Shown one piece after another: positions 2,783 through 17,983 of a stretch of 39,265 bases of DNA (the first letter of the stretch is position 1; each line of letters starts with the position of its first letter). The position numbers and the translations under genes were made by a program. The notes below the pieces were generated by a model. That model was not told the origin of the DNA. It saw only the letters and a program-made list of their open reading frames with translations, and ran no database searches. The stretch is taken from NCBI GenBank assembly GCA_001822575.1, contig MHRM01000001.1, forward strand, positions 24,755 to 64,019. Direction: 5' to 3'. The stretch is from Candidatus Taylorbacteria bacterium RIFCSPHIGHO2_02_FULL_44_12. GTDB lineage: Bacteria; Patescibacteriota; Minisyncoccia; Phycocordibacterales; PALSA-1337.

Positions 2783-3091
2783 AATTCAAACTGTTTTGGA
2801 TGCGCACCAAATGGAGTTAATTCCAAAATGCTCTCGCACAAGGCTCCACAATCAAGGCACACATCCGACTCACTATCAAAAAAGTATTACATAACCCCAA
2901 AAATGTCAATAGTCGGGTGTGGACAAAGGAACAACAAAAAATATTATGAACATGTTGAATCATAACTATACTATTTACATTATATATAATTGTTGTAGTC
3001 TCATTATTAGATTTAACTATCGAAACCACTTCTGTGGGATTGATTCATTTACAAACAGCTCACTGACAATCAGTAATACTAAAAAAAGACT

Positions 3092-5302
3092 ATGATAGAA
3101 CAAGATTTTCGTCCGCTGGTCGTATTGTACGGCTATCGGAGCAAGAAAAACACGCTCAATTTTGTGGGTCGAAAAGGGCTTATAATACTGAGCGGAAAAA
3201 GCACTACCATTCAGAATATTTTACGCCTGTGCAACGGATTCAATAATGTTGGGGATATAACTCACAAATTACGGACCGTCAGTCCGGAAGAAGTGACCAA
3301 ATTTCTGTTACTTTTTGAACAGCAAGGGATTGTCTGCGATAGTCGGAATCTTCATCTAAGGTTCCACGAAGATTCAGCCAATCCGACAAAATTCTCGCGC
3401 GATCTCGGTGTTGATGGGGTTTCAGATATATTGCGGTCTGATAGGTTACGAAAACGCGATGGTAGGGTAATTCAGATACCCAACCCTATCTCGAGTAGTG
3501 TTCTTGATGTAATTCAAAATCGGAAGTCTACTCGGGCTTTTCAACCGGGTCAGATTTCGTTGAACAAATTGTCTGGAATCTTGGAGGCTACATACAGCAT
3601 CGGGAAAAACAAACACTGGAGCGTGGCCTCCGGTGGTGGAATGTACCCGCTTGATCTGTATCTAATCGTCCCTAATGACGATCAACAAGTGCCCAGAGGC
3701 ATACATCGCTGGAATCCTGAGAAGAGAAGTTTGATCATGGTGTCGGGCAAAAATCCGAGCGTATGGTTGTCAAAGACATTCAATGCCAAAACGCTTTTGG
3801 AAAATGTGGCATGCGTCCTGTGCATAGTGGCAAATTTCAAGCGTTCAACTATGAAGTACGCGAATCGTGGGTATCGTCTTGTTTTACTTGAAGCTGGGCA
3901 TGCGACACAAAACACTTACTTATTTTGTGCTGAGCAAAATATTGGAATTGTTGAATGTTGTGGATTTGCTGATGAAGAACTAGCAAAAGAGCTCGGGCTG
4001 ATTTTCCCAGAAGAAGCAGTTTTAACAACACTTATTATAGGAAAAATCAATCGTAAAAAATATGCCTCAATAAGTGACCAAGAAATGTCAGAAACAGCAG
4101 AACGACTTCGTCACATGCTTGTTGGGCACAACAAACCAATAGAAGATGTTTCGTTTTTGGATCTTGAAGTGATGGGATACACAATGCCAATGTGGGCAGC
4201 TGTGGCTACATATAGACCTATTCATGGGTATGCCACAAAAATCATGCTTAGAAATAAAGTTGCATTTGCGACTGGATCAAATTCAAACGAAACGCTTATA
4301 AAAGTTCTAGCGGAAGGATTTGAGCGATGCGCGCTTGAACAAAACCGTAGCGACCAAAAAGAAAGCGCTCTCAATCTAGGCGAACCATTCCTCGATCCTC
4401 GCGTCCTAGTTCCTTACTCGAACGCTCAATTCAAAAACTTAAGAGGTGTCACACAGTTTGATCCCCGGAGAAAAATAGATTGGGTTATTGGTTCACGCAG
4501 AGCGACTGGCGAACGAGTTTGGGTTCCTATGGAGCTTGTCTACTACGCTACGGAGCAAATGAAGTGCGAATTGAAACTATGCTATCAAGCGAGTTCAAGT
4601 GGTGTCGCGGCGCATCTCGACAAAGAGATTGCGATTGAGACGGCTCTCTACGAACTTATCGAGCGTGATGCCTTCACTGTCACATGGTATTCCAAGCGTC
4701 AAGTGAATTCGATAAATCACGAGTACTTGCCGTTAGACTTGAGAGATAGAATTTCAGAGTGGAAGCGACTGGGTTACAATGTTTCCATGCTGGATTTGAC
4801 ACTCGATGGTCCTCCAGTAATACTGGCTATCATATGGTCTCGAAAAAAGAGACCTGCAATCTGTTCTGGTGCAGCCTGCAAACCAAACTTTGTTGATGCA
4901 ACTCTAAAAGCGTTCAACGAGGCTGAGTTTATGGCTATGACATGGCATGATTACAGGCGAAAAACGAGAATGAGCATTCTAGATATAAAATGTCCAGAAG
5001 ATCACGGCGCTTTTTATCTGGATCCGAAAAATCTCGTGTATGTTGACTGGCTACTTGAAGCAGAAGAAAGTGATGTAATCAGGAAAAACTTCAAGGGTGA
5101 TCTACAGTATCTTGATCCTGTTGTGGTGGATATTACACCCAAAGATCATGCCTGTGGGCTGTCGGTTATGCGGGTGCTGTCGGAAAAGCTCATGCCTATC
5201 AACTTCGGCCATGGTAATGAACACCGTGGACATTCTAGAATGAACATGTTATCGTTCAAATGGAGTGAGAAATACCCTTCGACTCCCCACTTCTTCGCTT
5301 GA
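3092..5302 (+). CDS. tri-domain RiPP maturase: PqqD-like recognition domain + SagB-type (nitroreductase-fold) dehydrogenase + YcaO cyclodehydratase
   Basis: SagB-type motifs: NRKSTRAFQPG, ASGGGMYPLDLYL, NRGYRLVLLEAGHATQNTYLF, VECCGFADEE. YcaO/SagD-type motifs: ATGSNSNETLIKVLAEGFERCA, SSSGVAAHLDKEIAIETALYELIERDAF, and a Pro-containing C-terminus KYPSTPHFFA. N-terminal aa about 25-85 (TTIQNILRLCNGFNNVGDITHKL...EEVTKFLLLFEQQGIV) follow the PqqD/RRE winged-helix pattern. Confidence 0.85.
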   Translation: MIEQDFRPLVVLYGYRSKKNTLNFVGRKGLIILSGKSTTIQNILRLCNGFNNVGDITHKLRTVSPEEVTKFLLLFEQQGIVCDSRNLHLRFHEDSANPTKFSRDLGVDGVSDILRSDRLRKRDGRVIQIPNPISSSVLDVIQNRKSTRAFQPGQISLNKLSGILEATYSIGKNKHWSVASGGGMYPLDLYLIVPNDDQQVPRGIHRWNPEKRSLIMVSGKNPSVWLSKTFNAKTLLENVACVLCIVANFKRSTMKYANRGYRLVLLEAGHATQNTYLFCAEQNIGIVECCGFADEELAKELGLIFPEEAVLTTLIIGKINRKKYASISDQEMSETAERLRHMLVGHNKPIEDVSFLDLEVMGYTMPMWAAVATYRPIHGYATKIMLRNKVAFATGSNSNETLIKVLAEGFERCALEQNRSDQKESALNLGEPFLDPRVLVPYSNAQFKNLRGVTQFDPRRKIDWVIGSRRATGERVWVPMELVYYATEQMKCELKLCYQASSSGVAAHLDKEIAIETALYELIERDAFTVTWYSKRQVNSINHEYLPLDLRDRISEWKRLGYNVSMLDLTLDGPPVILAIIWSRKKRPAICSGAACKPNFVDATLKAFNEAEFMAMTWHDYRRKTRMSILDIKCPEDHGAFYLDPKNLVYVDWLLEAEESDVIRKNFKGDLQYLDPVVVDITPKDHACGLSVMRVLSEKLMPINFGHGNEHRGHSRMNMLSFKWSEKYPSTPHFFA

Positions 5303-5336
5303 AGGAGTAACAAATTGAAGGGAAGTTGGGCGTATT

Positions 5337-5468
5337 ATGAAAACAAAAAAACCACCGAACCCCCCCAAAGGAGTCAAGGTGTCAGTTCGTTCTTACAAAG
5401 ACATCCCAGGAACCCGTTGCACCCGCAGTGGTGGCGCGTGTCCGGGAGGTGGTACCTGCGGAAAATAG
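5337..5468 (+). CDS. candidate RiPP precursor peptide (43 aa), not in the ORF track
   Basis: My translation: MKTKKPPNPPKGVKVSVRSYKDIPGTRCTRSGGACPGGGTCGK, stop TAG 5466-5468. It starts 34 nt after the YcaO-fusion stop. The C-terminal 18 aa contain 3 Cys, 3 Thr, 1 Ser and 6 Gly. An in-frame GTG at 5379 is preceded by AAGGAG (5368-5373), giving a possible 29-aa alternative. Confidence 0.5.
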   Translation: MKTKKPPNPPKGVKVSVRSYKDIPGTRCTRSGGACPGGGTCGK

Positions 5469-5488
5469 CCACCCCGTTACAACCAGGA

Positions 5489-5518
5489 ATTCCATGAGAC
5501 ATCCGTGTTTCATGGAAT
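5489..5518 (+). terminator. possible attenuating hairpin after the precursor ORF
   Basis: attccatga (5489-5497) pairs with tcatggaat (5510-5518) around a 12-nt loop, followed by the T-rich ctttgtttatc. Weak as a terminator. Confidence 0.3.
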
Positions 5519-5539
5519 CTTTGTTTATCTATAATATTG

Positions 5540-5545
5540 TATAAT
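5540..5545 (+). promoter_or_regulatory. -10-like TATAAT 6 nt upstream of ATG 5552 (leaderless-type arrangement)
   Basis: tataat followed by accttt then ATG. No Shine-Dalgarno motif lies between. Confidence 0.4.
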
Positions 5546-5551
5546 ACCTTT

Positions 5552-6217
5552 ATGTCTATAAATACCCATGTCCTTTTGGCCTCAAAAGATATAAGACCAT
5601 ATGTAAAACAACTGAAATCAATTTCTGAATCTGCTGTTTTGTCTGTTAAAAAATTGTTACCAATCAATGATGTGGATGTAGTGTTCTACTATAACCCAGG
5701 AGCAACATTTAATGAGTCTGAGGTTGGTGGTATCGGAGGATTTACACCAAATGCTAGTGTTATATTTATTTCACTAAATCCTCGTCATCCAAATCTTGAG
5801 AGTTCATTAAAAAATGAGTTACTATTTATGTTGGCTCATGAATTTCATCATACCATTCGTTGGCAAAAACAAGTCGAGGGCGACACCTTATTGGAGGCTC
5901 TGGTATTTGAAGGCTTAGCAGATCATTTTGCTCAAGAAATAACTGGCAAAAAAACTCCATCGATATATTCCAACGCATTGACCCCTGAACAAAAGAAAAT
6001 TTTTCTTAAAAAGGCTTCAGGGGAATGGGAAAAGCCAACATACGATAACAATCTATGGTTCTTTGGTTCACAGCCAGATGTTGTTCCGCGCTGGACAGGG
6101 TATACATTGGGATATGATCTCGTTTCCGCATATTTACATACAAACCCTGGGACAAGTGCTTCAAAACTTGCATCTGCTGATGCATCTTTGTTTGCCAACA
6201 AATCAATTTATCAGTAG
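5552..6217 (+). CDS. DUF2268/YjaZ-like putative zinc metallopeptidase (candidate leader peptidase)
   Basis: HExxH motif in MLAHEFHHTIRW, then EGLADHFAQE and RWTGYTLGYDLVSAYL, matching the general pattern of the DUF2268 predicted Zn-protease family. ATG 5552 is preferred over TTG 5537. Confidence 0.6.
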   Translation: MSINTHVLLASKDIRPYVKQLKSISESAVLSVKKLLPINDVDVVFYYNPGATFNESEVGGIGGFTPNASVIFISLNPRHPNLESSLKNELLFMLAHEFHHTIRWQKQVEGDTLLEALVFEGLADHFAQEITGKKTPSIYSNALTPEQKKIFLKKASGEWEKPTYDNNLWFFGSQPDVVPRWTGYTLGYDLVSAYLHTNPGTSASKLASADASLFANKSIYQ

Positions 6218-6378
6218 TGTCTAGACCCCTCAATCTTTTTGAAAAAAATAACATAAAAGGATTTGGTTATCCATGGGCGGAGATTTGAAATTCTGGAATA
6301 TACACAGTTACATATGCATCAAGAAAACTATCCGATAGTGCACTGAAACAACTGAATGTGGATAATAATCACATAAGG

Positions 6379-6384
6379 TATAAT
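6379..6384 (+). promoter_or_regulatory. -10-like TATAAT 7 nt upstream of ATG 6392 (leaderless-type arrangement)
   Basis: ggtataat followed by actagca then ATG. Confidence 0.4.
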
Positions 6385-6391
6385 ACTAGCA

Positions 6392-6826
6392 ATGCGCTTT
6401 CAGGTGCCTCAATTCATAGAAGTGGAAGACAGGATATTTGGCCAGCTGACTTTGAAGCAATTCATATATTTGGTCGGAGGCGGCGGTTTGTCTTTTCTTA
6501 TTTATGCCTTGACAGACAGCCTGGCCATATCCGTCGTCCCAATGATCATCATCATGGCCATATCTGCCTCCTTGGCTTTTTACAAGGTCAATAACAAACC
6601 CTTTATCGCCACCATGGAGTCCGCATTCAAATATTATCTAGGCAGTAAACTATATATATGGAAAAAAGAAGATGTCCCCGCAGAAAAGAGTCTCCAAAAT
6701 ATTTCGGCCATATCAAAAAACTACGCCTCTATCATGGTCCCAAAGATCTCTGACAGCAAGCTCAAAGACCTATCATGGAGTCTGGACATAAAAGAAAGCG
6801 TCTATTCAAACAAAAATCAAAAGTGA
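6392..6826 (+). CDS. PrgI-family-like small membrane protein (T4SS-associated)
   Basis: N-terminus MRFQVPQFIEVEDRIFGQLTLKQFIYLVGGGGLSFLIY and two TM helices are typical of PrgI-type proteins. It lies directly upstream of VirB4. Confidence 0.65.
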   Translation: MRFQVPQFIEVEDRIFGQLTLKQFIYLVGGGGLSFLIYALTDSLAISVVPMIIIMAISASLAFYKVNNKPFIATMESAFKYYLGSKLYIWKKEDVPAEKSLQNISAISKNYASIMVPKISDSKLKDLSWSLDIKESVYSNKNQK

Positions 6827-6871
6827 TTGGCATTGATTCCTTCCACCATTTCGCGAGAAAACAAAAAGAAT

Positions 6872-7510
6872 ATGGCAAATACAGTAAAAACCACCCAAAA
6901 TTTTGTTCCAGTCCGAGAGATCCGTGACGGGGTGATCATCTTGAAGGATGGGGCCATGCGTTCCGTCATTCTAGCTTCATCGTTAAATTTCGCTTTGAAG
7001 TCTGCCGATGAACAGAGCGCCATTCTTTTGCAATTCCAGAACTTTTTGAATTCTCTGGACTTTTCGGTTCAGATATTTATTCAGTCCAAAAAGTTGGATA
7101 TACGCCCATACATAGCCCTTTTGGAAGAGCGTTACAAAGAACAAGTCAGCGAATTGATGAAGATTCAAGTCCGGGAATACATAGAATTCGTCAAAACTTT
7201 TGTGGAAAGCGCCAATATTATGAGCAAAAGCTTCTTCGTGGTCATCCCTTATGACCCTCCAATCATCGGCTCGAAGAAAAATCCTTTCGCCAATATCCTC
7301 CCAAATCGCAAAGGCTCACAAGGCAATCCCACAGCCGATGCCCAGTTTGACGAATACCGCAGTCAACTAGAACAGAGAGTGGCTGTTGTGACCCAGGGCT
7401 TGGTACGCTGTGGTATCAGGGCCGCCGAATTGGGAACAGAGGAAGTGGTAGAATTGTTCTATAAGATATTCAATCCGGGGGAAACGGAAAAACCGATACA
7501 AATAACATAA
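6872..7510 (+). CDS. virB4: VirB4/TraE-type ATPase, N-terminal domain fragment
   Basis: TTQNFVPVREIRDGVIILKDGAMRSVILASSLNFALKSADEQSAILLQFQNFLNSL resembles the N-terminal domain of Gram-positive VirB4 homologs. It ends at TAA 7508-7510, in the same frame as and immediately followed by ATG 7511. Confidence 0.6.
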   Translation: MANTVKTTQNFVPVREIRDGVIILKDGAMRSVILASSLNFALKSADEQSAILLQFQNFLNSLDFSVQIFIQSKKLDIRPYIALLEERYKEQVSELMKIQVREYIEFVKTFVESANIMSKSFFVVIPYDPPIIGSKKNPFANILPNRKGSQGNPTADAQFDEYRSQLEQRVAVVTQGLVRCGIRAAELGTEEVVELFYKIFNPGETEKPIQIT

Positions 7511-9322
7511 ATGTCTATATTTTCAAAATTATTGGGGAAAAAATCTGAAGCACCAATAGTTTCCGTCTTACCCGAAGAAATATACCAAGCTGGGGTACTG
7601 GAACTCAAGGATGTCATCGCTCCATCTGCTCTCAAGGTTAGCCCCAAGGAGCTCAATCTCGGAGAAAAAATCGCTCGGACCTTATTTGTAATTTCTTATC
7701 CCAGATTTTTGGACGAAAGCTGGTTTGCTCCGATCATAAACCTAGACAAAGTATTCAATATATCCATATTTATTCACCCCGTTGACACCGCCAAGATACT
7801 GCGACATTTCCAGAAAAAAGTAGCCGAGGTTCAGGGACAGATTTCCAGAAGAGAAGACAAAGGCCTGGTGCGCGACCCGGCTCTGGATACAGCATACCAA
7901 GATCTGGAAGCCTTGCGCGATCAGCTGATGCAGGCCCAGGAACATCTCTTTGATGTCGGAGTATATATCACCCTCTTTGCCGAGACAGACAATGAATTAG
8001 ACAAACTAGAATCCGAGGTCAAATCCATTTTGGAATCAAAACTGGTATATGTAAAACCTGCCCTATTCCAGCAGGAACAAGGCTTCAAAAGCGTCATTCC
8101 CATTGCCGATGATCAGTTAGCTGTCCATTCCAAGCTCAATTCATCGCCACTCTCTAGTCTGTTCCCATTTGTTTCTTTTGATCTGACTTCGGACAAGGGC
8201 ATACTCTATGGGATCAATAGACACAATTCTTCATTGGTACTCTTTGACCGTTTCTCCTTGGAAAATTACAATTCCGTGACATTTGCGGTGGCTGGCGCCG
8301 GAAAATCCTACTTTACCAAGCTGGAAATTCTTCGTACCTTGATGTTTGATACAGAAGTGATCGTCATAGATCCTGAACGAGAATACGAATATATGGCCGA
8401 AGCCACGGGTGGAAAATATTTCAATATTTCCCTCAATTCCGAGCACCATATCAATCCCTTTGATCTACCGATACCGCGCGAAGATGAATCCGCTACTGAT
8501 GTTTTGCGCTCAAATATCATCAACTTGGTAGGATTATTCCGAATCATGTTGGGCGGCCTGACCCAGGAAGAAGACGCTATCATTGACCGGGCCATCACCG
8601 AGACATACGCTCTCAAAGACATTACAGCTGAGGCAGACTTCCGCAATGTAGAACCACCGCTTTTGTCAGACTTTGAATTGGTCCTGGCTGGAATGGAAGG
8701 AGCTGATTCTCTGGTCCAACGGATGTCAAAATACACCAAGGGTACATGGGCAGGCTTCATCAACCGCCCCTCAAATGTTGATATCAATAAAAAATTCGTG
8801 GTTTTTTCTCTTAGGGACATGGAAGACGAGCTCAAACCTGTGGCCATGTATATTGTTACTCACTATATCTGGAATGCTATCCGCAAAAACCTCAAGAAAC
8901 GCCTATTGGTCATAGATGAGGCATGGTGGATGATGAAATCCGAAGATACGGCTTCATTTCTATTCAGTTTGGCCAAACGTGGACGCAAATATTATCTGGG
9001 TCTATCCACTATCACTCAAGATGTGGATGACTTCTTGCGCTCGCCATACGGTTTGCCAATCGTTACCAACTCTTCTATTCAGATACTTCTGAAACAGTCA
9101 CCAGCTGTCATGGACAGCGTCCAAAAAACATTCAATCTGACCGATGAAGAGAAATACCTATTACTAGAATCAGATGTGGGAGAGGGGATGTTCTTCGTGG
9201 GCCTCAAGCATGTAGCTATAAAAATAGTGGCTTCCTACACCGAAGACCAAATCATCACCACCAATCCAGCTCAATTAGTCCAAATCCAGCAGGCAAAGAA
9301 AGATCTGGAGCAAGCCAGATAA
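7511..9322 (+). CDS. virB4: VirB4-family T4SS ATPase, C-terminal ATPase part
   Basis: Walker A is AVAGAGKSYFTK and Walker B is KRLLVIDEAWWMM. GRKYYLGLSTITQDVDDF is typical of the VirB4/TraC-type (DUF87 / AAA-like) domain. Confidence 0.85.
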   Translation: MSIFSKLLGKKSEAPIVSVLPEEIYQAGVLELKDVIAPSALKVSPKELNLGEKIARTLFVISYPRFLDESWFAPIINLDKVFNISIFIHPVDTAKILRHFQKKVAEVQGQISRREDKGLVRDPALDTAYQDLEALRDQLMQAQEHLFDVGVYITLFAETDNELDKLESEVKSILESKLVYVKPALFQQEQGFKSVIPIADDQLAVHSKLNSSPLSSLFPFVSFDLTSDKGILYGINRHNSSLVLFDRFSLENYNSVTFAVAGAGKSYFTKLEILRTLMFDTEVIVIDPEREYEYMAEATGGKYFNISLNSEHHINPFDLPIPREDESATDVLRSNIINLVGLFRIMLGGLTQEEDAIIDRAITETYALKDITAEADFRNVEPPLLSDFELVLAGMEGADSLVQRMSKYTKGTWAGFINRPSNVDINKKFVVFSLRDMEDELKPVAMYIVTHYIWNAIRKNLKKRLLVIDEAWWMMKSEDTASFLFSLAKRGRKYYLGLSTITQDVDDFLRSPYGLPIVTNSSIQILLKQSPAVMDSVQKTFNLTDEEKYLLLESDVGEGMFFVGLKHVAIKIVASYTEDQIITTNPAQLVQIQQAKKDLEQAR

Positions 9323-9333
9323 TTTTTTGCACA

Positions 9334-9445
9334 ATTGCGCCCTCTCGAGGACAACAGCTCTCCCTTCGTTTCGCTTCGCGAAAGTCGAGAGACTGTTCTC
9401 CCCTGCTTGTCCGCCGTAGCCTTGGCGAAGGTGGGCGGGCGCAAT
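9334..9445. other. GC-rich structured intergenic element (candidate ncRNA or regulatory structure)
   Basis: Outer 9-bp stem attgcgccc (9334-9342) pairs with gggcgcaat (9437-9445). Internal complement ctctcga (9342-9348) pairs with tcgagag (9385-9391). Palindrome ttcgcgaa at 9375-9382. Clearly GC-richer than the flanks. Confidence 0.4.
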
Positions 9446-9450
9446 GACAG

Positions 9451-9459
9451 TGTTATAAT
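9451..9459 (+). promoter_or_regulatory. extended -10 (TGTTATAAT) ending 6 nt upstream of ATG 9466 (leaderless-type arrangement)
   Basis: tgttataat followed by cgatgt then ATG. Confidence 0.45.
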
Positions 9460-9465
9460 CGATGT

Positions 9466-9978
9466 ATGCCACCACAAAAAAAGAAAATCGGAAAGATCAA
9501 ATGGTTACTGCTCTATTCTTTTACCGGCGTCGTGGATGTATTGCAATTTCTAGCGGATCTAACGGGGATCGGAATACTAGCCAGCGAGGCCGCCGAGCCA
9601 TTCATAGGAGGGATACTGATAGTCATGTTTGAATTGTTCGGAATATCTGTCATCACCAAACCCAAGAGATTGGTCTCTCTATTGTGTTTGGCAGGCGCCG
9701 ATGCCTTGACCGGTGGAATAGCGCCTTTCTGGATCGTTGATGTCTGGTATGTCCAAAGCGATGTCAAAAAAGAGGAGACGGAATACGAACAACAGACTCA
9801 ACAGGAAATGTTTATTCAATCGAGCATAGGAACGCCTGCGAATATAGACGGACAGCGCATTCCTCCAATAATCAACTCCACCAACAATCAACCCCTCAAT
9901 CAAAATGGTATCAGAATGCCTCGCAGAAACATCGCCCCATTACAATCTGCCATTCAAAAAACTGGAAATGCTCAGTAA
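9466..9978 (+). CDS. hypothetical multi-pass membrane protein (T4SS-like locus)
   Basis: Three predicted hydrophobic segments, then a Q/N/P-rich tail. No family recognised. Confidence 0.55.
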   Translation: MPPQKKKIGKIKWLLLYSFTGVVDVLQFLADLTGIGILASEAAEPFIGGILIVMFELFGISVITKPKRLVSLLCLAGADALTGGIAPFWIVDVWYVQSDVKKEETEYEQQTQQEMFIQSSIGTPANIDGQRIPPIINSTNNQPLNQNGIRMPRRNIAPLQSAIQKTGNAQ

Positions 9979-10010
9979 TAATATAGAGCCCAGCGAACAT
10001 TCTTTCATCT

Positions 10011-10119
10011 CTCCGCAATGTAGTTTGAGCCCCCGAGAATGGAAAACCCTCTAAAGCTTAATGAATATTGCTCGCACCGCTCCGCAAGGTCGCCCCGTCG
10101 AATGGAAAACCCTATAGAT
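10011..10119 (+). repeat. two imperfect direct repeat units upstream of gene 10160-11191
   Basis: Unit 1 is 10011-10056 and unit 2 is 10080-10119. Both start with ctccgcaa and contain the exact 14-mer gaatggaaaaccct (10037-10050 and 10100-10113, 63 nt apart). Confidence 0.6.
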
Positions 10120-10159
10120 AAGTGTGAACAAGTTCTTACTTCATGGTAAAATAAATTCA

Positions 10160-11191
10160 ATGAGATCGGCAATCAAACTCCTCTTTTTTGGCTTTATCGT
10201 ATTGTTTGCTGGCAATCTTTCTGTTCAGGCACAAATTCCTATTTCTGTCGGCGGCATAGAATTAACCGCTTCCGTTGATAATCCAATTCCAGAACAAATA
10301 GTTACCATTACTGCCAGAAGTTACAGCGTGGATATCAATACCGCCACTATCAGCTGGAGCGTGGGAGGGAAAGTCATATCCCAAGGCATAGGAGAAACCG
10401 TCGCAAAGGTAAAAGCCCCCGCACTGGGAACCGTTTTGAACGTAACCGTTTCCGCGGTATTGCCGGATGGCAATCGCCTGACCAAATCCATCTCCATAGG
10501 ATCTGGATCGGTAGATATGATCGTGGAAACAGATGGCCATGTCCCGGCATTTTTCCATGGCAAGGCCCCTGAAGGATATCAAAACAACATAAAGATAATA
10601 GCCATAGGACACATCGCGGATTCCCGTGGCGTCCAATACGATCCACAGACTCTGATATACCGCTGGAAAAAGAATAATCAGGCCATAGAGGATCAAAGCG
10701 GATATGGCAAACAATCCGTGGTGGTCGCCGGAGATATCGTTCCCAGAGCCTATGTCATATCGGTTACGGCAGAGACTCGCGACGGCAAAGCTCGAGCCGA
10801 AAGCAGTGTCTCTATATCTCCACAAGCCCCAGAAATAGTCTTTTACATTGACGATCCTCTCTACGGCCCAATGTTCAATGCGGCTGTGAATGAATCTATT
10901 CGAATCGGATCGGAAAGAGAAGTGAGCGTGCTGGCTTTGCCCTTCGGATTTAACAAACCAAAAGATTCTTCTGGTAATCTATCTTTTTCCTGGATGATCA
11001 ATAATGCCAGTCACCCAGAATTGGATTCCAGCCAGTCCATAGTCTTGCGCGCGCCGGATACTGGAGCTGGTTCTTCCGAGGTCCTGGTCAGCGTCCGCAA
11101 TATCCGCAATATCCTCCAGAGCGCCCAGTCTGGATTTGCTATTGTCTTTGGTCCTTCTGCCACCCAAAGCACTTCCGATCTAAATTTCTAA
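10160..11191 (+). CDS. secreted hypothetical protein
   Basis: Signal peptide MRSAIKLLFFGFIVLFAGNLSVQA starting at ATG 10160 (ORF track starts at GTG 10124). Beta-rich, Ig-like sequence style. No family recognised. Confidence 0.55.
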   Translation: MRSAIKLLFFGFIVLFAGNLSVQAQIPISVGGIELTASVDNPIPEQIVTITARSYSVDINTATISWSVGGKVISQGIGETVAKVKAPALGTVLNVTVSAVLPDGNRLTKSISIGSGSVDMIVETDGHVPAFFHGKAPEGYQNNIKIIAIGHIADSRGVQYDPQTLIYRWKKNNQAIEDQSGYGKQSVVVAGDIVPRAYVISVTAETRDGKARAESSVSISPQAPEIVFYIDDPLYGPMFNAAVNESIRIGSEREVSVLALPFGFNKPKDSSGNLSFSWMINNASHPELDSSQSIVLRAPDTGAGSSEVLVSVRNIRNILQSAQSGFAIVFGPSATQSTSDLNF

Positions 11192-11192
11192 T

Positions 11193-12383
11193 ATGAAATC
11201 ACTCATTTTATTGAGAGGAAACAAAAAAATCTTTATGGCTATGATTTTTTGCTTCATAGTGTTCTTGAATACCTTGAATGTTTCTAATCAACATTTCGTA
11301 TTCGCCCAGAACGCGAACAATACAACATACACTCTTTTGGAACCTCTTCCTTGTATACCGACAGAGACTAGCCCTTGCCCAGAGGGCCCGGGAGAATTAA
11401 AAACCGAAGTAAATCTCAATGAATATCTCATATATGCCATCAATTTGCTGATAGCCCTTTCGGCCGTGGCGGCAGTCTTCATGATCACTTGGGGGGGGTT
11501 CCAATACATGACAACGGATTCCTGGCAGAACAAAAAAGAAGGTTTGACCAAATTCAAAAACGCCATCTTCGGCCTTCTTCTAGTCCTTTGTTCATACATC
11601 ATACTGCGCACCGTCAATCCGAGGCTTGTAGAGATCCCAGCCACACTTGTGCCACCTCTAACGAATGTCAATCTCAAAGATTCAATAAGCCCTGATGATT
11701 TCTTTGATCAGATATCAGCAGAGGTACAAAGATTGAGTAACAATTTGGATGTTTCTATCATGGAAGAAAAGTTGAGACAAGCAAAAGGGGATGTAAAGTT
11801 AGAAAAACAAAATATTGATGATTTAAAAAAACAGTTGGATATATTATCAAAAGAGGGAATAAATGAAACTGATCCACGGGTACAAATAATAAAAACTTCT
11901 ATTGAAGTTGCAAATAATAATATAAAAGAAAAAGAGGCTAATGTTTTGGTAGAAGGGATTAAATTTACTAACAATGCCTCTATTGAGTTAGCCGCTCAAG
12001 GACTTGTTGGTAAAAAGGATTTTGAGGGGATCAACACTACTATAAATTACTACAAAAAAAGAATAGAGAATTCCGAAAATATAAAGATCTTCGAACTGGA
12101 AAAGCTCGGTAAGTACGAAAAATATTCCGTAGTAAATGATCAAGCTATTTATTCACAAACCATACTAGATTTGATGAGGAGCGATGCTATGGTCCAAAAC
12201 GCAGATTTTGGTTTCTTTTTCCCAAGCGGGACATATACATATAGAAGCCAGAAACCTCAAGCTTTGGCAGAGCTCAATACTGTGCCGAAACAAATAGAGT
12301 CCATAAAAGACCCGATATTGAAGCAAGAACTTCAGGATAGATTGAAAAACAGCATTGCATTGATTGAAGAAAAATTCAAATAG
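11193..12383 (+). CDS. T4SS-pilin-like (TrbC/VirB2-like) domain protein with long coiled-coil C-terminal extension
   Basis: Signal/TM segment, then two helices LLIALSAVAAVFMITWGGFQYMTT ... AIFGLLLVLCSYIILRTVNP typical of T4SS pilin domains. The C-terminal 230 aa are K/E-rich coiled coil. Confidence 0.5.
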   Translation: MKSLILLRGNKKIFMAMIFCFIVFLNTLNVSNQHFVFAQNANNTTYTLLEPLPCIPTETSPCPEGPGELKTEVNLNEYLIYAINLLIALSAVAAVFMITWGGFQYMTTDSWQNKKEGLTKFKNAIFGLLLVLCSYIILRTVNPRLVEIPATLVPPLTNVNLKDSISPDDFFDQISAEVQRLSNNLDVSIMEEKLRQAKGDVKLEKQNIDDLKKQLDILSKEGINETDPRVQIIKTSIEVANNNIKEKEANVLVEGIKFTNNASIELAAQGLVGKKDFEGINTTINYYKKRIENSENIKIFELEKLGKYEKYSVVNDQAIYSQTILDLMRSDAMVQNADFGFFFPSGTYTYRSQKPQALAELNTVPKQIESIKDPILKQELQDRLKNSIALIEEKFK

Positions 12384-12404
12384 ATAAAATATCCTCCAAT
12401 AATC

Positions 12405-13721
12405 ATGACCATTAAAGGAAAAACTATAATAATACTAATCGTGATTTTGCTCGGAAGCGCAATCTCTTATTGGTATTTTTTGTTGCGTTATTCTATGAAT
12501 ACAATCCCTATAAATACAGACACAGAAGAAACTGGGGGCTTCGCTCCTTTTGGCAGGACATCATCTGGTGGTAGACAAGGAACAAGTGGCGGAGAGAATG
12601 CCACAACAACAAATTATTCTGGCCAGAATGAACAGGTTAGACTGCCTGTTCTGCGGCTCTTGAGCGACACCCCCATCGGGGGGTATGGCGCTAGTACCAC
12701 GGCCAGCACCACGGTCATTCGCTGGATTGATCGCGGCAGAGGCAATACTTATGAAGCTCGTCAGGACTCCCTCAATATCAGAACATTATCAAACACCATA
12801 TTGCCAAGAGTCTATCAATCTTCCTGGAATAAAAATCTGACTGCCTTCATTGGGACGATTTTCCCGGACAATTCTGGAGATCCAAGTGTGGTTTACGCGG
12901 AACTTCAAGCCCACCCAATACCCAAACAACAGGCCACAACTACAGCCACTTCAACTCCGACTGCCCCAGCCAACAATTCCCTGGCCCCATTTGATCTCAA
13001 AGGCAAAAATCTTCCAGAAAAAACAATTGCTTATGCTGTTTCGCCAAAAAAAGATCGCCTATTCGTCTTTGTAGACGAGAACGGATCCGGAACAGGTTAT
13101 ATTTCAAACTTTAACGGCAGTTCCTTGAAAAAAATATTTTCTTCGCCATTGACCCAAGTCAATGTTGATTGGCCAGAAGAAAACACCATTGCCATCACCA
13201 CCAAAGGATCGTCCAATCAAAATGGATTTTTGTACTTCGTCAATCCTAATACTGGCATAATAAAAAAAATCCTTGGTCCCATCCGTGGATTGAGCACACG
13301 AGTCAGTCACGACGCTCGCTATGTTCTATATTCCACGGCTCTGATCTCCAAAAACAGCATCCGGGCTTTCATATACTCAATAACTTCCGCCAGCGAAACA
13401 GACGCTCTGATCCAAACATTGGCAGATAAATGCGCTTGGGGGCATTTCTATGCTTATACCGTCTATTGCGCGGCGCCATCATCTTTGATTCAAGCAGAAT
13501 ACCCTGATGACTGGTATAAGGGGACTGTTTCCTTCACAGACAAAATCTGGGCAGTAGATGCCAGAACTGGTGAAGTTAGTTTGGTTTCAGCTTTGGTTGA
13601 TCAGGCCGATCGCTTGATAGATGTTTTCAACATGGAAATCAGTGATAAAGACGAATATTTGCTCTTTATGAATAAAAAAGACCTATCATTCTGGTCACTG
13701 GATTTGGTGTCTAGTAAGTGA
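12405..13721 (+). CDS. membrane-anchored hypothetical protein, possibly beta-propeller-like
   Basis: N-terminal TM IIILIVILLGSAISYWYFLL, then a Gly/Thr-rich linker and a beta-rich body. No motif recognised. Confidence 0.55.
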   Translation: MTIKGKTIIILIVILLGSAISYWYFLLRYSMNTIPINTDTEETGGFAPFGRTSSGGRQGTSGGENATTTNYSGQNEQVRLPVLRLLSDTPIGGYGASTTASTTVIRWIDRGRGNTYEARQDSLNIRTLSNTILPRVYQSSWNKNLTAFIGTIFPDNSGDPSVVYAELQAHPIPKQQATTTATSTPTAPANNSLAPFDLKGKNLPEKTIAYAVSPKKDRLFVFVDENGSGTGYISNFNGSSLKKIFSSPLTQVNVDWPEENTIAITTKGSSNQNGFLYFVNPNTGIIKKILGPIRGLSTRVSHDARYVLYSTALISKNSIRAFIYSITSASETDALIQTLADKCAWGHFYAYTVYCAAPSSLIQAEYPDDWYKGTVSFTDKIWAVDARTGEVSLVSALVDQADRLIDVFNMEISDKDEYLLFMNKKDLSFWSLDLVSSK

Positions 13722-13755: not shown

Positions 13756-14517
13756 TTATGACACGATCCTAACTTTACGCGAATATCTGTACATGATGAA
13801 CAATTCCTGAACCAAGGTGAACAGGGTGCTGACTGTCCAGTAGATAGCGATTATAGCGGCTGCGGCAGGGAATTGGGAAGGAATGATCCAATAAGTTGAA
13901 ACAAAAGCCAAGATCGGCAATAAGAACTTCATTTGTTTGTTCATGGAACCAGCCAACTGCGAAGAAAAATCGACATTGGTTGGCGTGGTTTTGGATTGGC
14001 GAGTCTGGGCTCGGACAGCCGGGGAAAAATAAAGCTGAAAAAATTGGGCTCCGGCAGTGATGAATGACAAAATCAAACTTTTCTGGGTTAAATCAATCAA
14101 TCCTAGAAAATGTGTTTTGATAACCGGCACGGAAATGAAATTGTAGAGAAATTCGGGGTGAATATCTGGAATGATCTTGTAAAAAACCGAGATCAAAGCA
14201 AGCAATATCGGAAGTTGGATCAGTAACAGCAAAATTCCGGAAAAAGGACGAATGCCTTTAGACTTGTACAATTCCATGATCTTCATGGCCTGTACTTGGC
14301 GATCATTGGCGTATTTAGCTTTTAGTTGAGCCATTTCCGGCTCAACTTCCTTCATTCGCGCCTGGGTCAATATAGAAGTCCTAGATAGAGGGAACAATAT
14401 CAATTTGACTATGACCGTGAAGATAATAACTGCCATCCCCAGATCTATCCACGGCAAAACATCTATAATACCCACCAAGCCATTGTAGAGAGGCCGAAAT
14501 ATCAGTGTTTGGTACAT
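13756..14517 (-). CDS. yidC: YidC/Oxa1-family membrane protein insertase
   Basis: VIIFTVIVKLILFPLS ... MAQLKAKYANDRQVQAMKIMELYKSKGIRPFSGILLLLIQLPILLAL, and it lies downstream of rnpA. Confidence 0.9.
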   Translation of the reverse strand: MYQTLIFRPLYNGLVGIIDVLPWIDLGMAVIIFTVIVKLILFPLSRTSILTQARMKEVEPEMAQLKAKYANDRQVQAMKIMELYKSKGIRPFSGILLLLIQLPILLALISVFYKIIPDIHPEFLYNFISVPVIKTHFLGLIDLTQKSLILSFITAGAQFFQLYFSPAVRAQTRQSKTTPTNVDFSSQLAGSMNKQMKFLLPILAFVSTYWIIPSQFPAAAAIIAIYWTVSTLFTLVQELFIMYRYSRKVRIVS

Positions 14518-14521
14518 CCGT

Positions 14522-14863
14522 TCAAGTATACTTTAATATTCCTGTCTTCACAAAGAGACCATGGAGATCATCCGTCAGGGCTGGAATCAGCTCTTTTAAT
14601 CCTGACAATTTTCCAAAAACAACAACATTCATTCCTTGGAGGATTCGTGGATACAAAGGCCTCACTGCCTCATATATTCGCCTGCGCATCTTATTTCTAC
14701 TCACGGCTGTCTTAAATATTTTCTTGCTAGCCACGGCGGCTATCCTAGTATCGGAACAACTGCTGACAAATCTGACAGTAAAAAAAGTTGAATGAGCCAC
14801 TCTTCCTTTGCTCATTACAAACTCAAATTGAAAAGTATTCAGTCTTTGCGAGCGTGGGAGCAT
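14522..14863 (-). CDS. rnpA: ribonuclease P protein component
   Basis: 113 aa and basic, with KKIFKTAVSRNKMRRRIYEAVR. Classical rpmH-rnpA-yidC order. Confidence 0.85.
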   Translation of the reverse strand: MLPRSQRLNTFQFEFVMSKGRVAHSTFFTVRFVSSCSDTRIAAVASKKIFKTAVSRNKMRRRIYEAVRPLYPRILQGMNVVVFGKLSGLKELIPALTDDLHGLFVKTGILKYT

Positions 14864-14875
14864 TTTGGCTTTGAT

Positions 14876-14998
14876 GGACCAAACACCACTACATCACATA
14901 ACAAACTCATCTTAAGCCCAGTCGCTTGGCTGAAGAACTACATTTTGTGGTAGAGGCCGCTGGCAATGTTTGTTATGTGATGTAGTGGTGTTTGGTCC
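14876..14998 (-). repeat. long-hairpin element A: 31-bp perfect inverted repeat with 61-nt loop
   Basis: Left arm 14876-14906 (ggaccaaacaccactacatcacataacaaac) is the exact reverse complement of right arm 14968-14998. Read on the minus strand, the loop starts with attgccagcggcctc, which is shared with element B. Confidence 0.85.
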
Positions 14999-15007
14999 TT
15001 AAAAACA

Positions 15008-15142
15008 TCAAACAGCAATACGACGACGGCCTTTGGCGCGACGACGAGTCAAGCCTTTTCTTCCAGAGGCTGTTTTCATTCGGGCACGAAAGCCGTGGGT
15101 CCGAGCTCTCTTGCGTCTTTTGGGTTGGTAAGTTATGGACAT
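15008..15142 (-). CDS. rpmH: 50S ribosomal protein L34 (below the ORF-track size cutoff)
   Basis: My reverse-strand translation: [44 protein letters not shown], 44 aa plus stop. Confidence 0.9.
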
Positions 15143-15297
15143 GGTTTTACTATACAGGATATGGAACACAAATCAATATCAATGAGCTCGATTTTGGCAT
15201 ATCCACATCTTATCAACATATTTAAGCTTTTGGCACAAGTATGTACAATCAAAAACAAGTATATACTTAGAAAATAAATCCGAGGAATAGAAATTCA

Positions 15298-16650
15298 ATG
15301 AGTGATTATACAAAAATGTGGCAGACGGCCCTGGTGAAGATAGAATCTGACATATCACAAGCCAACTTTTCAACATGGTTCAAAGAAACCAGCATCGTTC
15401 GTGAAGAGGAGGGAGTCGTGTACTTGGGAGTGCCAAACTCTTTTACCCAGGAATGGCTTTACAAAAAATTCCACAACTCCATTTTGCGCGTTCTGCGGGC
15501 CTTGAATGAGGGAGTCCGTTCCCTTGAATATGTCATTATCACCAAAGACGGCAGTATCAAGGGGCTGGGACACGCCAAAAGAAAGGAAGTGGACCTACCG
15601 ACTATGTCTATGCCTCTCCATGATTTCTACATCAACAAAGAAGACAACCTCAATCCTCGCTACACTTTTGAAAATTTCGTCATCGGCCCATTCAACGAGC
15701 TTGCTCATGCCGCCTCACAAACCGTCATTCAGAAACCAGGCCAAACATACAATCCCTTGTTCGTATACGGTGGAACCGGTCGGGGCAAAACACATCTGAT
15801 CCAGGCTATTGGGAATAAAATAAAAAAAGATTTCGCCGACAAAAAAGTCTTTTATCTGACCTCGGAACGCTTCGGTTCCGAATATCTGGTCTCACTCCAA
15901 GAAAACAAAGCCCAACTATTCAAGGAAAAATATCGCCGTTTTGATGTCGTTATCATGGACGATGTTCAGTTTTTCTCAAAAAAAGAGAAATTCCAAGAAG
16001 AATTGTTTCATTTCTTCAATACATTCAAGGATACGGGCCGTCAGCTGGTATTTTCTTCAGACATGCACCCCAATATCATTCCAGAGCTAGAAGACCGTCT
16101 ACGAAGCCGTTTCAACACTGGTATGGTCGTTGATATACCAGAACCAGACCATGAATCGCGGATAGCCATCGTTAGGACAAAATGCTCCACCCACAACATC
16201 ACCTTGCCGAAAGATATTATAGAATTCTTGGCTGATGCCATAAAAGACAATATCCGCGAAATAGAAGGTGTGGTAAACATAGTTGCTTGTCAGACACAAC
16301 TCAAAAAAAGAGAGTTGAATATAAATGAAATCAAACAGATTCTCAAAAATTGCACCAAACCAAAAAAGGTCGTTTCAATCAAAGATGTGGTCAAAACCAT
16401 ATCGGAATATTATGGAGTTGATGAAGACAGTATATACAACAAAACCAGACGCAAGGAGGTTGTCAGACCTAGACAAGTGATCATGTATATCCTTCGTGAG
16501 GACTTCAATATATCCTTTCCAGCTATTGGCGAAAAAATAGGAGGGAGAGACCACACCACGGTTATTCATTCATACGAAAAAATCCGAGGAGAGGTCAAAA
16601 ATGATCTTTTGTTGTCGCAGGAGATCAGTCAACTTCGTTCTATGTTATAA
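15298..16650 (+). CDS. dnaA: chromosomal replication initiator DnaA
   Basis: Walker A is GGTGRGKTHL. Also VIMDDVQFF, and the C-terminal DNA-binding helix IGGRDHTTVIHSYEKI. Confidence 0.95.
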   Translation: MSDYTKMWQTALVKIESDISQANFSTWFKETSIVREEEGVVYLGVPNSFTQEWLYKKFHNSILRVLRALNEGVRSLEYVIITKDGSIKGLGHAKRKEVDLPTMSMPLHDFYINKEDNLNPRYTFENFVIGPFNELAHAASQTVIQKPGQTYNPLFVYGGTGRGKTHLIQAIGNKIKKDFADKKVFYLTSERFGSEYLVSLQENKAQLFKEKYRRFDVVIMDDVQFFSKKEKFQEELFHFFNTFKDTGRQLVFSSDMHPNIIPELEDRLRSRFNTGMVVDIPEPDHESRIAIVRTKCSTHNITLPKDIIEFLADAIKDNIREIEGVVNIVACQTQLKKRELNINEIKQILKNCTKPKKVVSIKDVVKTISEYYGVDEDSIYNKTRRKEVVRPRQVIMYILREDFNISFPAIGEKIGGRDHTTVIHSYEKIRGEVKNDLLLSQEISQLRSML

Positions 16651-16876
16651 ATATAGATAATGATGTGTATAAGTATGGAATTGTTGGTGGATAAAATCGT
16701 TTATTTTTAATCTAAGAAAAACTTCTTCATCCATTATGGTTGTTGGTTATATGTTTATCCGAAAATAAAAAGTCATAAAACACTTTATATATAAAGTAAA
16801 AATAGCTTTTCAACATATCCACAGTCCTAATAATAATAAGTGAAAAATTAAAAAATAATTACTACTATAAAATACC
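16651..16876. promoter_or_regulatory. putative oriC (dnaA-dnaN spacer with DnaA-box-like sites and an AT-rich tract)
   Basis: Three 8/9 matches (16664-16672 tgtgtataa, 16686-16694 ggtggataa, 16815-16823 atatccaca) and one 7/9 match (16755-16763 ttatccgaa) to TTATCCACA. Very AT-rich run at 16824-16870. Two more boxes lie upstream of dnaA (15199-15207 atatccaca, 15210-15218 ttatcaaca). Confidence 0.6.
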
Positions 16877-17983
16877 ATGAAACTAGAGATAAGTTCACAA
16901 AAACTGAAAGAAATTATACATCTTGTTGAGAGGCTTGCCGGAAAACAAACCACTCTCCCCGTTCTTTCTTGCATATTGATAAATGTTAAGAATGGCAATG
17001 TTGTTTTGAAAACAACCAACCTGGATATAGGTATTGAAATATCATTACCGGTAAAATCAGAAAAAGATGGGGTTATAGCCGTGCCAGCGAGGACATTTTC
17101 ATCTTTTATTTCACAAATTCCAGAACAAAATCAAATAATTTACATGGAAGAGATTTCTGGGAATTTGAAGATATCATCATCTCATTCAAAAGGAGTCATA
17201 AAAACCGTTCCCAATGAAGATTTCCCGACTATTCCAAGAGTTTTGGATGGCCAAAATTGTGTTGTTCAGAGCAAGTTATTCTCCAAAGGGTTATCCAGTG
17301 TTTCTTATAGCGCCTCTATTTCTGGGGTCAAACCAGAACTTTCCAGTGTTTATGTTTACAAAAACAACGAAGATTTGGTATTTGTTGCCACAGATTCATT
17401 TCGTTTGGCAGAAAAAATCATCAAAATAAATACCCCAACATCATTTGGAGATATGATGATACCGTTGAATAATGTCTTGAATATAACCAAGATTTTGGAA
17501 TCAATGAGTGAGAAAGTTTCAGTAACATCCAACAAAAATCTCATTTCTTTTGAGTCTGGGGGAATATATCTTGTGTCCAGGCTAATTGACGGGGTTTTCC
17601 CGGATTATCGCCAAATCGTACCCAAAGAATTCATAACAGAAGCAGTTGTTCTAAAACAAGATTTGATAAATGCTCTAAAAGTCGCCAATATATTTTCCGA
17701 CAAATTCAATCAAGTGCGATTTATCATCAAACCAACAGCCAAAACATTTGAAATATTCACAAAAAACAGTGATGTGGGGGAAAATCAAACATCATTACCG
17801 GCTTCTTTGTCCGGCGAACCAGCCGAAATAAATTTTAACCATAAATATATGACTGACTGTTTCCAGTCTGTTGAATCTGACAGTGTCTCTTTGCGCGTTT
17901 CTGGAAACAATCGCCCAATGATCATTAGACCGGTTTCCGGGGATCAGACTTTCATGTACCTAGTTATGCCTATGAATCGTTGA
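16877..17983 (+). CDS. dnaN: DNA polymerase III beta sliding clamp
   Basis: 368 aa immediately after dnaA. Typical three-domain clamp sequence ending in MYLVMPMNR. Confidence 0.95.
   Translation: MKLEISSQKLKEIIHLVERLAGKQTTLPVLSCILINVKNGNVVLKTTNLDIGIEISLPVKSEKDGVIAVPARTFSSFISQIPEQNQIIYMEEISGNLKISSSHSKGVIKTVPNEDFPTIPRVLDGQNCVVQSKLFSKGLSSVSYSASISGVKPELSSVYVYKNNEDLVFVATDSFRLAEKIIKINTPTSFGDMMIPLNNVLNITKILESMSEKVSVTSNKNLISFESGGIYLVSRLIDGVFPDYRQIVPKEFITEAVVLKQDLINALKVANIFSDKFNQVRFIIKPTAKTFEIFTKNSDVGENQTSLPASLSGEPAEINFNHKYMTDCFQSVESDSVSLRVSGNNRPMIIRPVSGDQTFMYLVMPMNR

Follow-up and report, generated by a model that had tools for sequence, protein, structure and literature searches.

In a 39,265-nucleotide stretch of the genome of Candidatus Taylorbacteria bacterium RIFCSPHIGHO2_02_FULL_44_12 (contig MHRM01000001.1; the whole stretch is called the window below), we analysed a plus-strand gene (3092..5302) that encodes a recognition domain, a dehydrogenase and a cyclodehydratase in one polypeptide. 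This fused enzyme and the elements that follow it (precursor, terminator and protease gene) probably make up a minimal linear azole-containing peptide/thiazole-oxazole-modified microcin (LAP/TOMM) cassette, working by the mechanism proposed further on. The domains are, in order, a RiPP (ribosomal peptide that is modified after translation) recognition element (RRE), a SagB-type flavin mononucleotide (FMN) dehydrogenase and a YcaO cyclodehydratase, and the catalytic residues are conserved. Neither the 30 large reading frames scanned in the window nor the conserved neighbours in related loci include an E1-like or Ocin-ThiF-like gene. A conserved precursor, terminator and protease lie beside the fused enzyme.

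One polypeptide combines a predicted RRE with SagB and YcaO domains

The open reading frame (ORF) at 3092-5302 starts with ATG and runs cleanly through 736 codons on the plus strand. A preliminary description of this DNA, made from the letters alone, had proposed that RRE, SagB and YcaO are fused in this one 736-residue chain; Pfam and NCBIfam agree with it for the two catalytic domains, and an AlphaFold2 model for all three parts. Pfam detected Nitroreductase (PF00881) at residues 141-317 (E 2e-16) and YcaO (PF02624) at residues 395-696 (E 2e-41, matching positions 4-320 of a profile of 325), and the NCBIfam SagB model TIGR03605 matched with 99.4 bits, above its curated cut-off of 78.4. AlphaFold2, run with an input alignment of 32 family members, gave a full-length model with a mean predicted local distance difference test score (pLDDT) of 89.6 and a predicted template modelling score of 0.87. 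In this model the RRE fold occupies residues 8-83 approximately (the segment 1-83 corresponds to 3092..3340), SagB extends from about residue 84 to about 320 (3341..4051) and YcaO covers about 346-736 (4127..5299). Around 70 full-length homologues recovered by a homologue search share both the length and the domain pair. Judged from sequence, both catalytic domains are real, as is the order in which they stand, and the matches are far above chance.

The SagB assignment rests on PF00881, TIGR03605, invariant alignment columns and Foldseek, which superposed this part on McbC (TM-score on target 0.74). Residues K255-Y256 (nt 3854-3859) align exactly with McbC K201-Y202, the Lys-Tyr catalytic pair that the structure of McbBCD places above the C-alpha of the azoline (PMC6395948). 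Across 23 fusions of different phyla in a broad alignment, Y256 never varies and K255 hardly does, and R144-x-S146-x-R148 is conserved in the same domain. The most conserved stretch of the whole family, DSRxLxxxFHxDSxNPxxF, falls within residues 84-135 (helices 84-95 and 107-115), which we take to be the N-terminal arm typical of SagB-type dehydrogenases. The dehydrogenase proposed earlier for about residues 140-320 was correctly recognized, although with this arm its fold begins at about residue 84.

The YcaO domain was identified by PF02624, by alignment with LynD, TruD and MJ1094, by invariant columns and by Foldseek, which matched it to LynD, MusD, MJ1094 and McbD. Its ATP-binding residues are in place: the nucleotide and Mg motifs are invariant across the family and align with their LynD and TruD equivalents. 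The helix motifs KxLAEGFER (404-412) and ELIERDA (521-527) hold the invariant residues K404, E408, E411 and R412, and E521, E524, R525 and D526, respectively. In the loop SSSGVAAH (501-508), S502 and G504 are invariant across the family. The C-terminal tail P732-H733-x-F735 is invariant as well; its sequence is PSTPHFFA in this enzyme and FPHPFA across the wider set of fusions. It resembles, without being identical to, the Pro-rich C-terminal tail that inserts into the active site of McbD and BalhD (PMC6395948).

A conserved precursor gene and a protease gene adjoin the fused enzyme

Between the fused gene and the protease gene lies a small plus-strand ORF (5337..5468) that encodes a 43-residue peptide, MKTKKPPNPPKGVKVSVRSYKDIPGTRCTRSGGACPGGGTCGK. 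Its leader contains a stretch of beta-strand type, GVKVSVRSY, and is followed by a Cys/Gly-rich core, CTRSGGACPGGGTCGK. The precursor-like motif occurs nowhere else in the window. Counterparts of similar sequence at the same position were found in about 20 related loci; in related contigs the gene callers had overlooked this gene. The counterparts include MKTRKMPKAPKGVKVSIRSYGNSPDTRCNRSGGECSGGGTCGR (L002), MKKSQRPKLKLRVRVRPFDRIYSCRSGGACPGGGSCGK (L085) and, in partial form, ...KVAVTITPYEGSFQAFSLKSGSGCGGGSCSGGGSCGKCGK (L001) and MQAQDSIRVKIRPYEHAQQSGSGSSTSGCAGSGSCGH... (L005); the Mycolicibacterium locus (L009) has one too. Alignment of the family revealed a leader motif, hydrophobic-K/R-V-x-V/I-x-x-Y/F, ahead of a Gly/Ser/Cys-rich core, and both leader and core look like those of microcin-B17-type LAP precursors. 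Such a conserved gene next door strengthens the earlier reading of the enzyme as azole machinery. The Saccharibacteria locus L001 carries two different precursor genes (10255-10353 and 11184-11435), one on either side of its protease gene.

A pattern scan and RNA folding located a terminator-like hairpin with a T-run (5489..5528, plus strand) directly 3' of the precursor stop codon. The hairpin (5489-5518, 13-bp stem) has a folding energy of -19.5 kcal/mol (z -4.7), and a hairpin with a U-run stands at the equivalent place in L002, L081, L083 and L085, where the sequences are unrelated. It fits a terminator or an attenuator, and conservation of the structure behind the small ORF supports the latter as a real gene. 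A promoter scan returned 9 candidates against 8.3 expected in shuffled sequence, which is not above expectation, and we claim no promoter. We also considered as precursor an upstream ORF (2919-3095, 58 residues, GTG start) that overlaps the start codon of the enzyme. It was rejected, being AT-rich and devoid of a Gly/Cys core, with no counterpart upstream of the fusion gene in L002 or other loci.

Past the hairpin, a plus-strand gene (5537..6217) encodes a predicted DUF2268 zinc metalloprotease (PF10026, E 8e-30) with an HEFHH motif of the HExxH type. The mechanical start is TTG at 5537; homologues point to ATG at 5552 (MSINTHVL...) as the likely one. Clustering of every ORF in the neighbourhood of 26 loci, fused or split, left the DUF2268 gene as the sole conserved neighbour. 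It directly adjoined the fusion gene in 18 of the 26, in co-directional, convergent or divergent orientation, and was also present in three of four further contigs among L081-L085. Its product is a candidate leader peptidase. The genes flanking the cassette differ wholly from locus to locus, and the unit that moves therefore consists of the enzyme, the peptide and the protease.

The fusions of proteobacterial origin (a Pseudomonadota metagenome-assembled genome, Reyranella and Cupriavidus) are without DUF2268 and share as neighbour a YheC/D-like ATP-grasp protein (L010 5431-6420, L018 9960-10934, L026 6544-7524). In Cupriavidus (L026), two tandem fusion genes (4279-6531 and 7527-9794) flank the ATP-grasp gene. 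These loci may encode a hybrid azole/ATP-grasp pathway.

The fusion family is large and centred on Patescibacteria

In an exhaustive profile search of 1.84 billion representatives, some 125 of the top 150 clusters (50% identity) matched at full length, with all three segments covered in a single stretch. The E-value was still 1e-118 at rank 150, and the family is therefore large. The wiring had been thought uncommon, which is the case among characterised systems but not in metagenomes. Named members come from Taylorbacteria, Uhrbacteria, Parcubacteria, Minisyncoccia, Saccharibacteria, Woesebacteria, Magasanikiibacteria and Paceibacterota. The majority belong to Patescibacteria, the candidate phyla radiation (CPR), with a few outliers (Mycolicibacterium, Reyranella, Cupriavidus, other Proteobacteria and Bdellovibrionales). 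Among species representatives, a metagenome-assembled genome of Candidatus Taylorbacteria comes nearest (81% identity). Public annotation names the homologues only as 'YcaO-like family protein' or 'SagB family peptide dehydrogenase'.

To tell true fusions from adjacent genes, the ORFs of the 80 loci returned by a genome scan (one genome per species) were screened with hidden Markov models (HMMs) of the three segments. True single-ORF fusions of 720-850 residues were found in L001, L002, L004-L014, L016-L018, L020-L022, L024, L026, L044 and L049. Many apparent fusions from L027 onward (Paracoccus, Kribbella, Clavibacter, Azospirillum and others) were separate adjacent YcaO and SagB genes joined by tblastn and were discarded. 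A second word-indexed homology search, with a broad alignment, left the set essentially unchanged.

In the split relatives L023 and L025 the RRE stays on the SagB half, which agrees with recognition coming from the dehydrogenase side. The YcaO protein of L025 (4794-6650) has 618 residues, with the YcaO domain starting at about residue 277 after an N-terminal extension of about 270 residues without Pfam or NCBIfam match; that of L023 (1126-2640) has an extension of about 140 residues without Pfam match. These extensions could be cryptic docking domains or E1-like remnants. Two further homologues depart from the common layout. P0072 (694 residues, annotated as SagB-type dehydrogenase) combines the Pfam domains Nitroreductase and TfuA (PF07812); this dehydrogenase-TfuA fusion is a hint that YcaO accessory domains may be wired in further unusual ways. 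P0041 (1194 residues, 57% identity over the full query) carries extra DEAD/SNF2 helicase Pfam domains, which may reflect read-through in gene calling or a genuine fusion of larger size.

The enzyme leaves no room for an E1-like domain

The preliminary description had further held that a YcaO portion of about 390 residues (about 350-736) leaves no space for an E1-like domain, and that no E1-like or ThiF-like partner is encoded in the window. Both points withstood closer inspection. The modelled YcaO part (about 391 residues) matches the standalone YcaOs MJ1094 (383-residue chain, TM-score on target 0.68 with 417 columns aligned) and McbD (393-residue chain, TM-score on target 0.63) over essentially their whole length, and the linker from SagB to YcaO comprises only some 25 residues (321-345). 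Because the YcaO part is sized like standalone YcaOs and the linker is so short, an E1-like domain is without room; going by the model, the fused enzyme cannot accommodate such an adenylation-type domain. Nor does one hide elsewhere in the linkers, as residues 84-135 belong to the SagB arm. The NCBIfam TOMM models for the E1-like C protein (TIGR03603/TIGR03882), the fused C-D protein and the Ocin-ThiF-like F protein (TIGR03693) have no match in the enzyme at E<=1. By Pfam or NCBIfam, none of 30 large ORFs scanned in the window encodes a ThiF, E1-like or Ocin-ThiF-like protein, and no partner family appears among the conserved neighbours of the 26 loci.

A partner encoded elsewhere in the genome might still be required to activate the YcaO domain, in which case the fusion would merely unite the B and D proteins. 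Among the characterised YcaOs that form azolines, the majority depend on an E1-like or Ocin-ThiF-like partner of this kind (PMC5589413; PMC4603692), the window covers only 39 kb of the genome, and some split YcaO proteins, as in L025, bear the long unassigned extensions described above. We nevertheless regard this as unlikely. Apart from the missing partner gene in the window ORFs scanned and around 26 loci from very different genomes, the cassette of enzyme, peptide and protease moves through unrelated contexts, CPR genomes are very small, and the RRE is already present in cis. For full independence of the fused enzyme from any partner, we see the balance as about even.

The N-terminal domain resembles an RRE in fold

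AlphaFold2 confidently predicted residues 8-83 as a winged helix of beta-beta-beta-alpha-alpha-alpha topology (strands 8-10/14-18, 21-26 and 29-34; helices 37-45, 53-59 and 65-78), and three strands followed by three helices are the layout of RiPP recognition elements. Residues 1-118, modelled separately (pLDDT 85.9), were used to search the PDB with Foldseek, and ranks 1-12 were all RRE-bearing proteins. TruD was the top RRE-domain match (E 5e-4). The isolated RRE from PbtF, which is Ocin-ThiF-like, superposed over 81 columns with a TM-score on target of 0.72 and a root-mean-square deviation of 2.4 A. LynD, TigE, ThcOx and the leader-bound lasso-peptide RRE TbiB1 were also among the first 12, and the LarB1-type lasso B1 protein (6jx3) and McbB followed at ranks 16-17. 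Residues P8, F24, G26, R27, L44, C47, G49 and I56 are invariant or nearly so across the family.

Fold comparison was the sole approach that detected the RRE. Pfam and NCBIfam gave zero family matches for residues 1-120 at E<=1, PqqD (PF05402) included, and a sequence profile of the domain searched against the PDB returned nothing significant, with weak in-register alignments to PbtF (E 1.5) and the LynD RRE (E 1.9). The PqqD-like RRE that had been placed at residues 25-85 is therefore accepted as an RRE at the level of the predicted fold, but it starts earlier, spanning about 8-83, and has no Pfam PqqD match. Leader binding by this predicted RRE would fit the conserved beta-strand leader motif of the precursors, which is consistent with such binding without being proof of it.

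The domain might instead be vestigial or structural, with YcaO and SagB recognising the peptide directly, as with the partner-independent YcaOs of bottromycin type. The existence of such YcaOs speaks for this, as do the lack of a PqqD sequence-family match and the distant fusions L012, L020 and L026, which are unmatched by the N-terminal HMM; the authors of RRE-Finder, moreover, suggest that RREs fused to dehydrogenases may be vestigial (PMC7470986). Set against these points are the strong conservation of the domain, the high confidence of its prediction, the leader motif of the kind bound by RREs, and its position as the sole RRE in the cassette (residues 1-83). We judge a vestigial domain improbable, somewhat more so than a partner encoded elsewhere.

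A proposed mechanism for azole formation in one chain

We infer azole chemistry with the following course. The 43-residue precursor would be made from 5337-5468, and its leader GVKVSVRSY, with alternating hydrophobic residues, would dock as an extra beta-strand on the N-terminal RRE. Using ATP, the YcaO domain would cyclodehydrate the three core cysteines, and possibly the preceding Thr/Ser, to azolines. The SagB domain, with FMN and Lys255-Tyr256, would then oxidise the azolines to azoles on a peptide still tethered to the RRE. The enzyme probably forms a homodimer via its nitroreductase-fold domain, and this dimer would be a compact counterpart of McbB4C2D2 with the SagB core, rather than an E1-like protein, as scaffold. 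Finally, the adjacent DUF2268 zinc protease would cut off the leader.

Other chemistry (backbone thioamide or amidine formation, or MusD-like ATP-dependent proteolysis) or a protein substrate in place of a small peptide is very improbable: YcaOs are chemically diverse, MusD, MJ1094 and the M. kandleri YcaO are among the fold or sequence matches and the YcaO score lies under the SagD family cut-off, but a covalently attached SagB with an intact Lys-Tyr pair makes sense only if azolines form, the conserved peptide encoded alongside has a Cys/Ser/Thr-Gly core resembling the one in microcin B17, and no TfuA (PF07812) or sulfur-transfer gene was found in the window ORFs scanned with Pfam. Thioamidation in particular was set aside on the missing TfuA and the intact dehydrogenase.

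Several observations count against an LAP cassette built on a single-chain enzyme. The TOMM SagD model TIGR03604 matched residues 394-717 with 153.2 bits, below its NCBIfam curated cut-off of 219.25; given this score, the YcaO part is, as far as sequence tells, a divergent branch. Its tail, PHFFA, ends in Ala and not in the terminal Pro of a canonical Pro-rich PxPxP. Canonical azoline-forming YcaOs are strongly activated by the partner discussed above, and the part of the genome seen is limited to the window. The Foldseek E-values of the RRE matches are modest (5e-4 to 3e-2), and the suspicion that dehydrogenase-borne RREs are vestigial applies here too. No transporter or immunity gene is conserved beside the fusion gene among the loci compared. 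At the level of sequence and predicted structure, the interpretation given in the preliminary description is supported.

The most far-reaching version of our proposal is that the protein is a self-sufficient single-chain azole synthetase in which the dehydrogenase-borne RRE serves both steps and the SagB dimer core takes over from the E1-like protein the roles of scaffold and YcaO activator. Together with the 43-residue precursor and the DUF2268 protease, it would make up a complete azole-peptide pathway smaller than any other known, and one widespread among CPR bacteria of ultra-small size. We give this version an even chance of being right. If true, the E1-like or Ocin-ThiF partner, regarded as nearly universal among azoline-forming YcaOs, would be dispensable when an RRE and a dehydrogenase are supplied in cis, and dehydrogenase-borne RREs could be working recognition modules. 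A one-gene azole synthetase with a short leader would also be useful in engineering peptides. In CPR/Patescibacteria, about whose chemical ecology very little is known, enzyme, peptide and protease would amount to a concrete secondary-metabolite pathway. The fused enzyme is attractive both to RiPP enzymologists and for CPR biology.

Genomic surroundings of the cassette

A scan of the window identified chromosomal genes, namely dnaA, dnaN, rnpA, yidC, ruvABC, polA, a class A penicillin-binding protein, a Mur ligase, FemAB, Fpg, TsaE and a type II/IV secretion ATPase. Immediately upstream of the cassette lies a direct repeat of 269 nt (1192-1460 and 2125-2393, 91% identity, 933 nt apart), which encodes the near-identical C-terminal 80 residues or so of the plus-strand ORFs 804-1436 and 1956-2369. 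Each of these is followed by a minus-strand lipoprotein-like ORF (1511-1819, MKKLFQLALFVPVVMFVFGCASS...; 2453-2782, MKKMFLPALLALAFGMGCTNF...), and the arrangement suggests that a unit of two genes was duplicated in tandem.

Directly past the cassette, a type-IV-secretion-like set (6392-13721) comprises a PrgI-family protein (6392-6826), an apparently split VirB4-like ATPase in two abutting ORFs (6827-7510 with VirB4 N-terminal models, 7511-9322 with the TraG/VirB4 P-loop) and a protein with a type IV secretion system pilin domain (11193-12383), together with several ORFs of no assigned family. This set is not conserved beside the cassette in other loci. It is followed by the chromosomal origin neighbourhood (13756-17983), with yidC and rnpA on the minus strand and then dnaA (15298-16650) and dnaN (16877-17983). 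The GC content falls to 0.36 at 16-18 kb, and the GC skew changes sign around the same place.

Comparison with known azole synthetases

The microcin B17 synthetase McbBCD of E. coli, which installs thiazoles and oxazoles in a Gly/Ser/Cys-rich linear peptide, shares with the fused enzyme a YcaO of similar size and fold (McbD, 396 residues), a SagB-type dehydrogenase with a Lys-Tyr pair (McbC) and leader recognition through a winged-helix RRE. There, however, three separate proteins form a B4C2D2 octamer, the RRE resides on the E1-like zinc-binding McbB, and the tethered peptide shuttles between the distant D and C active sites (PMC6395948). Here the B and D proteins are one chain, with the RRE at the dehydrogenase end and no E1-like domain. 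The leader protease of microcin B17 is encoded outside its cluster, whereas the DUF2268 protease gene is adjacent.

The cyanobactin oxidases ThcOx/CyaGox have RRE-like domains N-terminal to a SagB-type FMN dehydrogenase, and both parts match ours structurally (PMC6395948); ThcOx contains two RRE-like copies and no YcaO, and its pathway uses a separate RRE-E1-YcaO heterocyclase. Such RRE-dehydrogenase fusions, of which ThcOx is a known case, have been detected by RRE-Finder (PMC7470986). LynD and TruD, the best overall fold matches (E 5e-23), likewise hold an N-terminal RRE and a C-terminal YcaO in one chain, and their RRE is the best match for residues 1-83. Their middle domain is E1-like and they have no dehydrogenase, while the middle domain here is SagB. 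In the micrococcin system TclI/TclJ/TclN, cyclodehydratase and dehydrogenase are both served by one RRE, which presents the leader to them (PMC10634744), the same logic that we propose. In that system the RRE is carried by a separate Ocin-ThiF-like scaffold whose binding to both enzymes is transient, and a short E1-like domain is retained in TclJ; in the fused enzyme RRE, dehydrogenase and YcaO are covalently linked. The partner-independent YcaOs of bottromycin and trifolitoxin, and MusD, also do without an E1-like or Ocin-ThiF partner, but they have neither an RRE in cis nor a fused dehydrogenase, and their chemistry or substrate recognition differs.

In the literature searched, we found no description of an RRE-SagB-YcaO single chain without an E1-like part, of this family of short precursors or of a RiPP protease role for DUF2268. 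Closest in lineage are the 110 LAP clusters that Sharrar et al. (2020, mBio) reported in 93 further CPR genomes, with YcaO, nitroreductase, peptidase and a nearby precursor (PMC7298704). These were described as separate genes from antiSMASH calls, and the paper is silent on fusion, RRE, missing E1-like partner and the short precursor family. Fusions of C and D proteins and partner-independent YcaOs were already known (PMC4603692; PMC5589413; PMC10634744). The system described here is predictable from known parts and was partly anticipated by earlier genome surveys, and the fused locus is a variant within the LAP/TOMM azole synthetases, not a separate kind of system.

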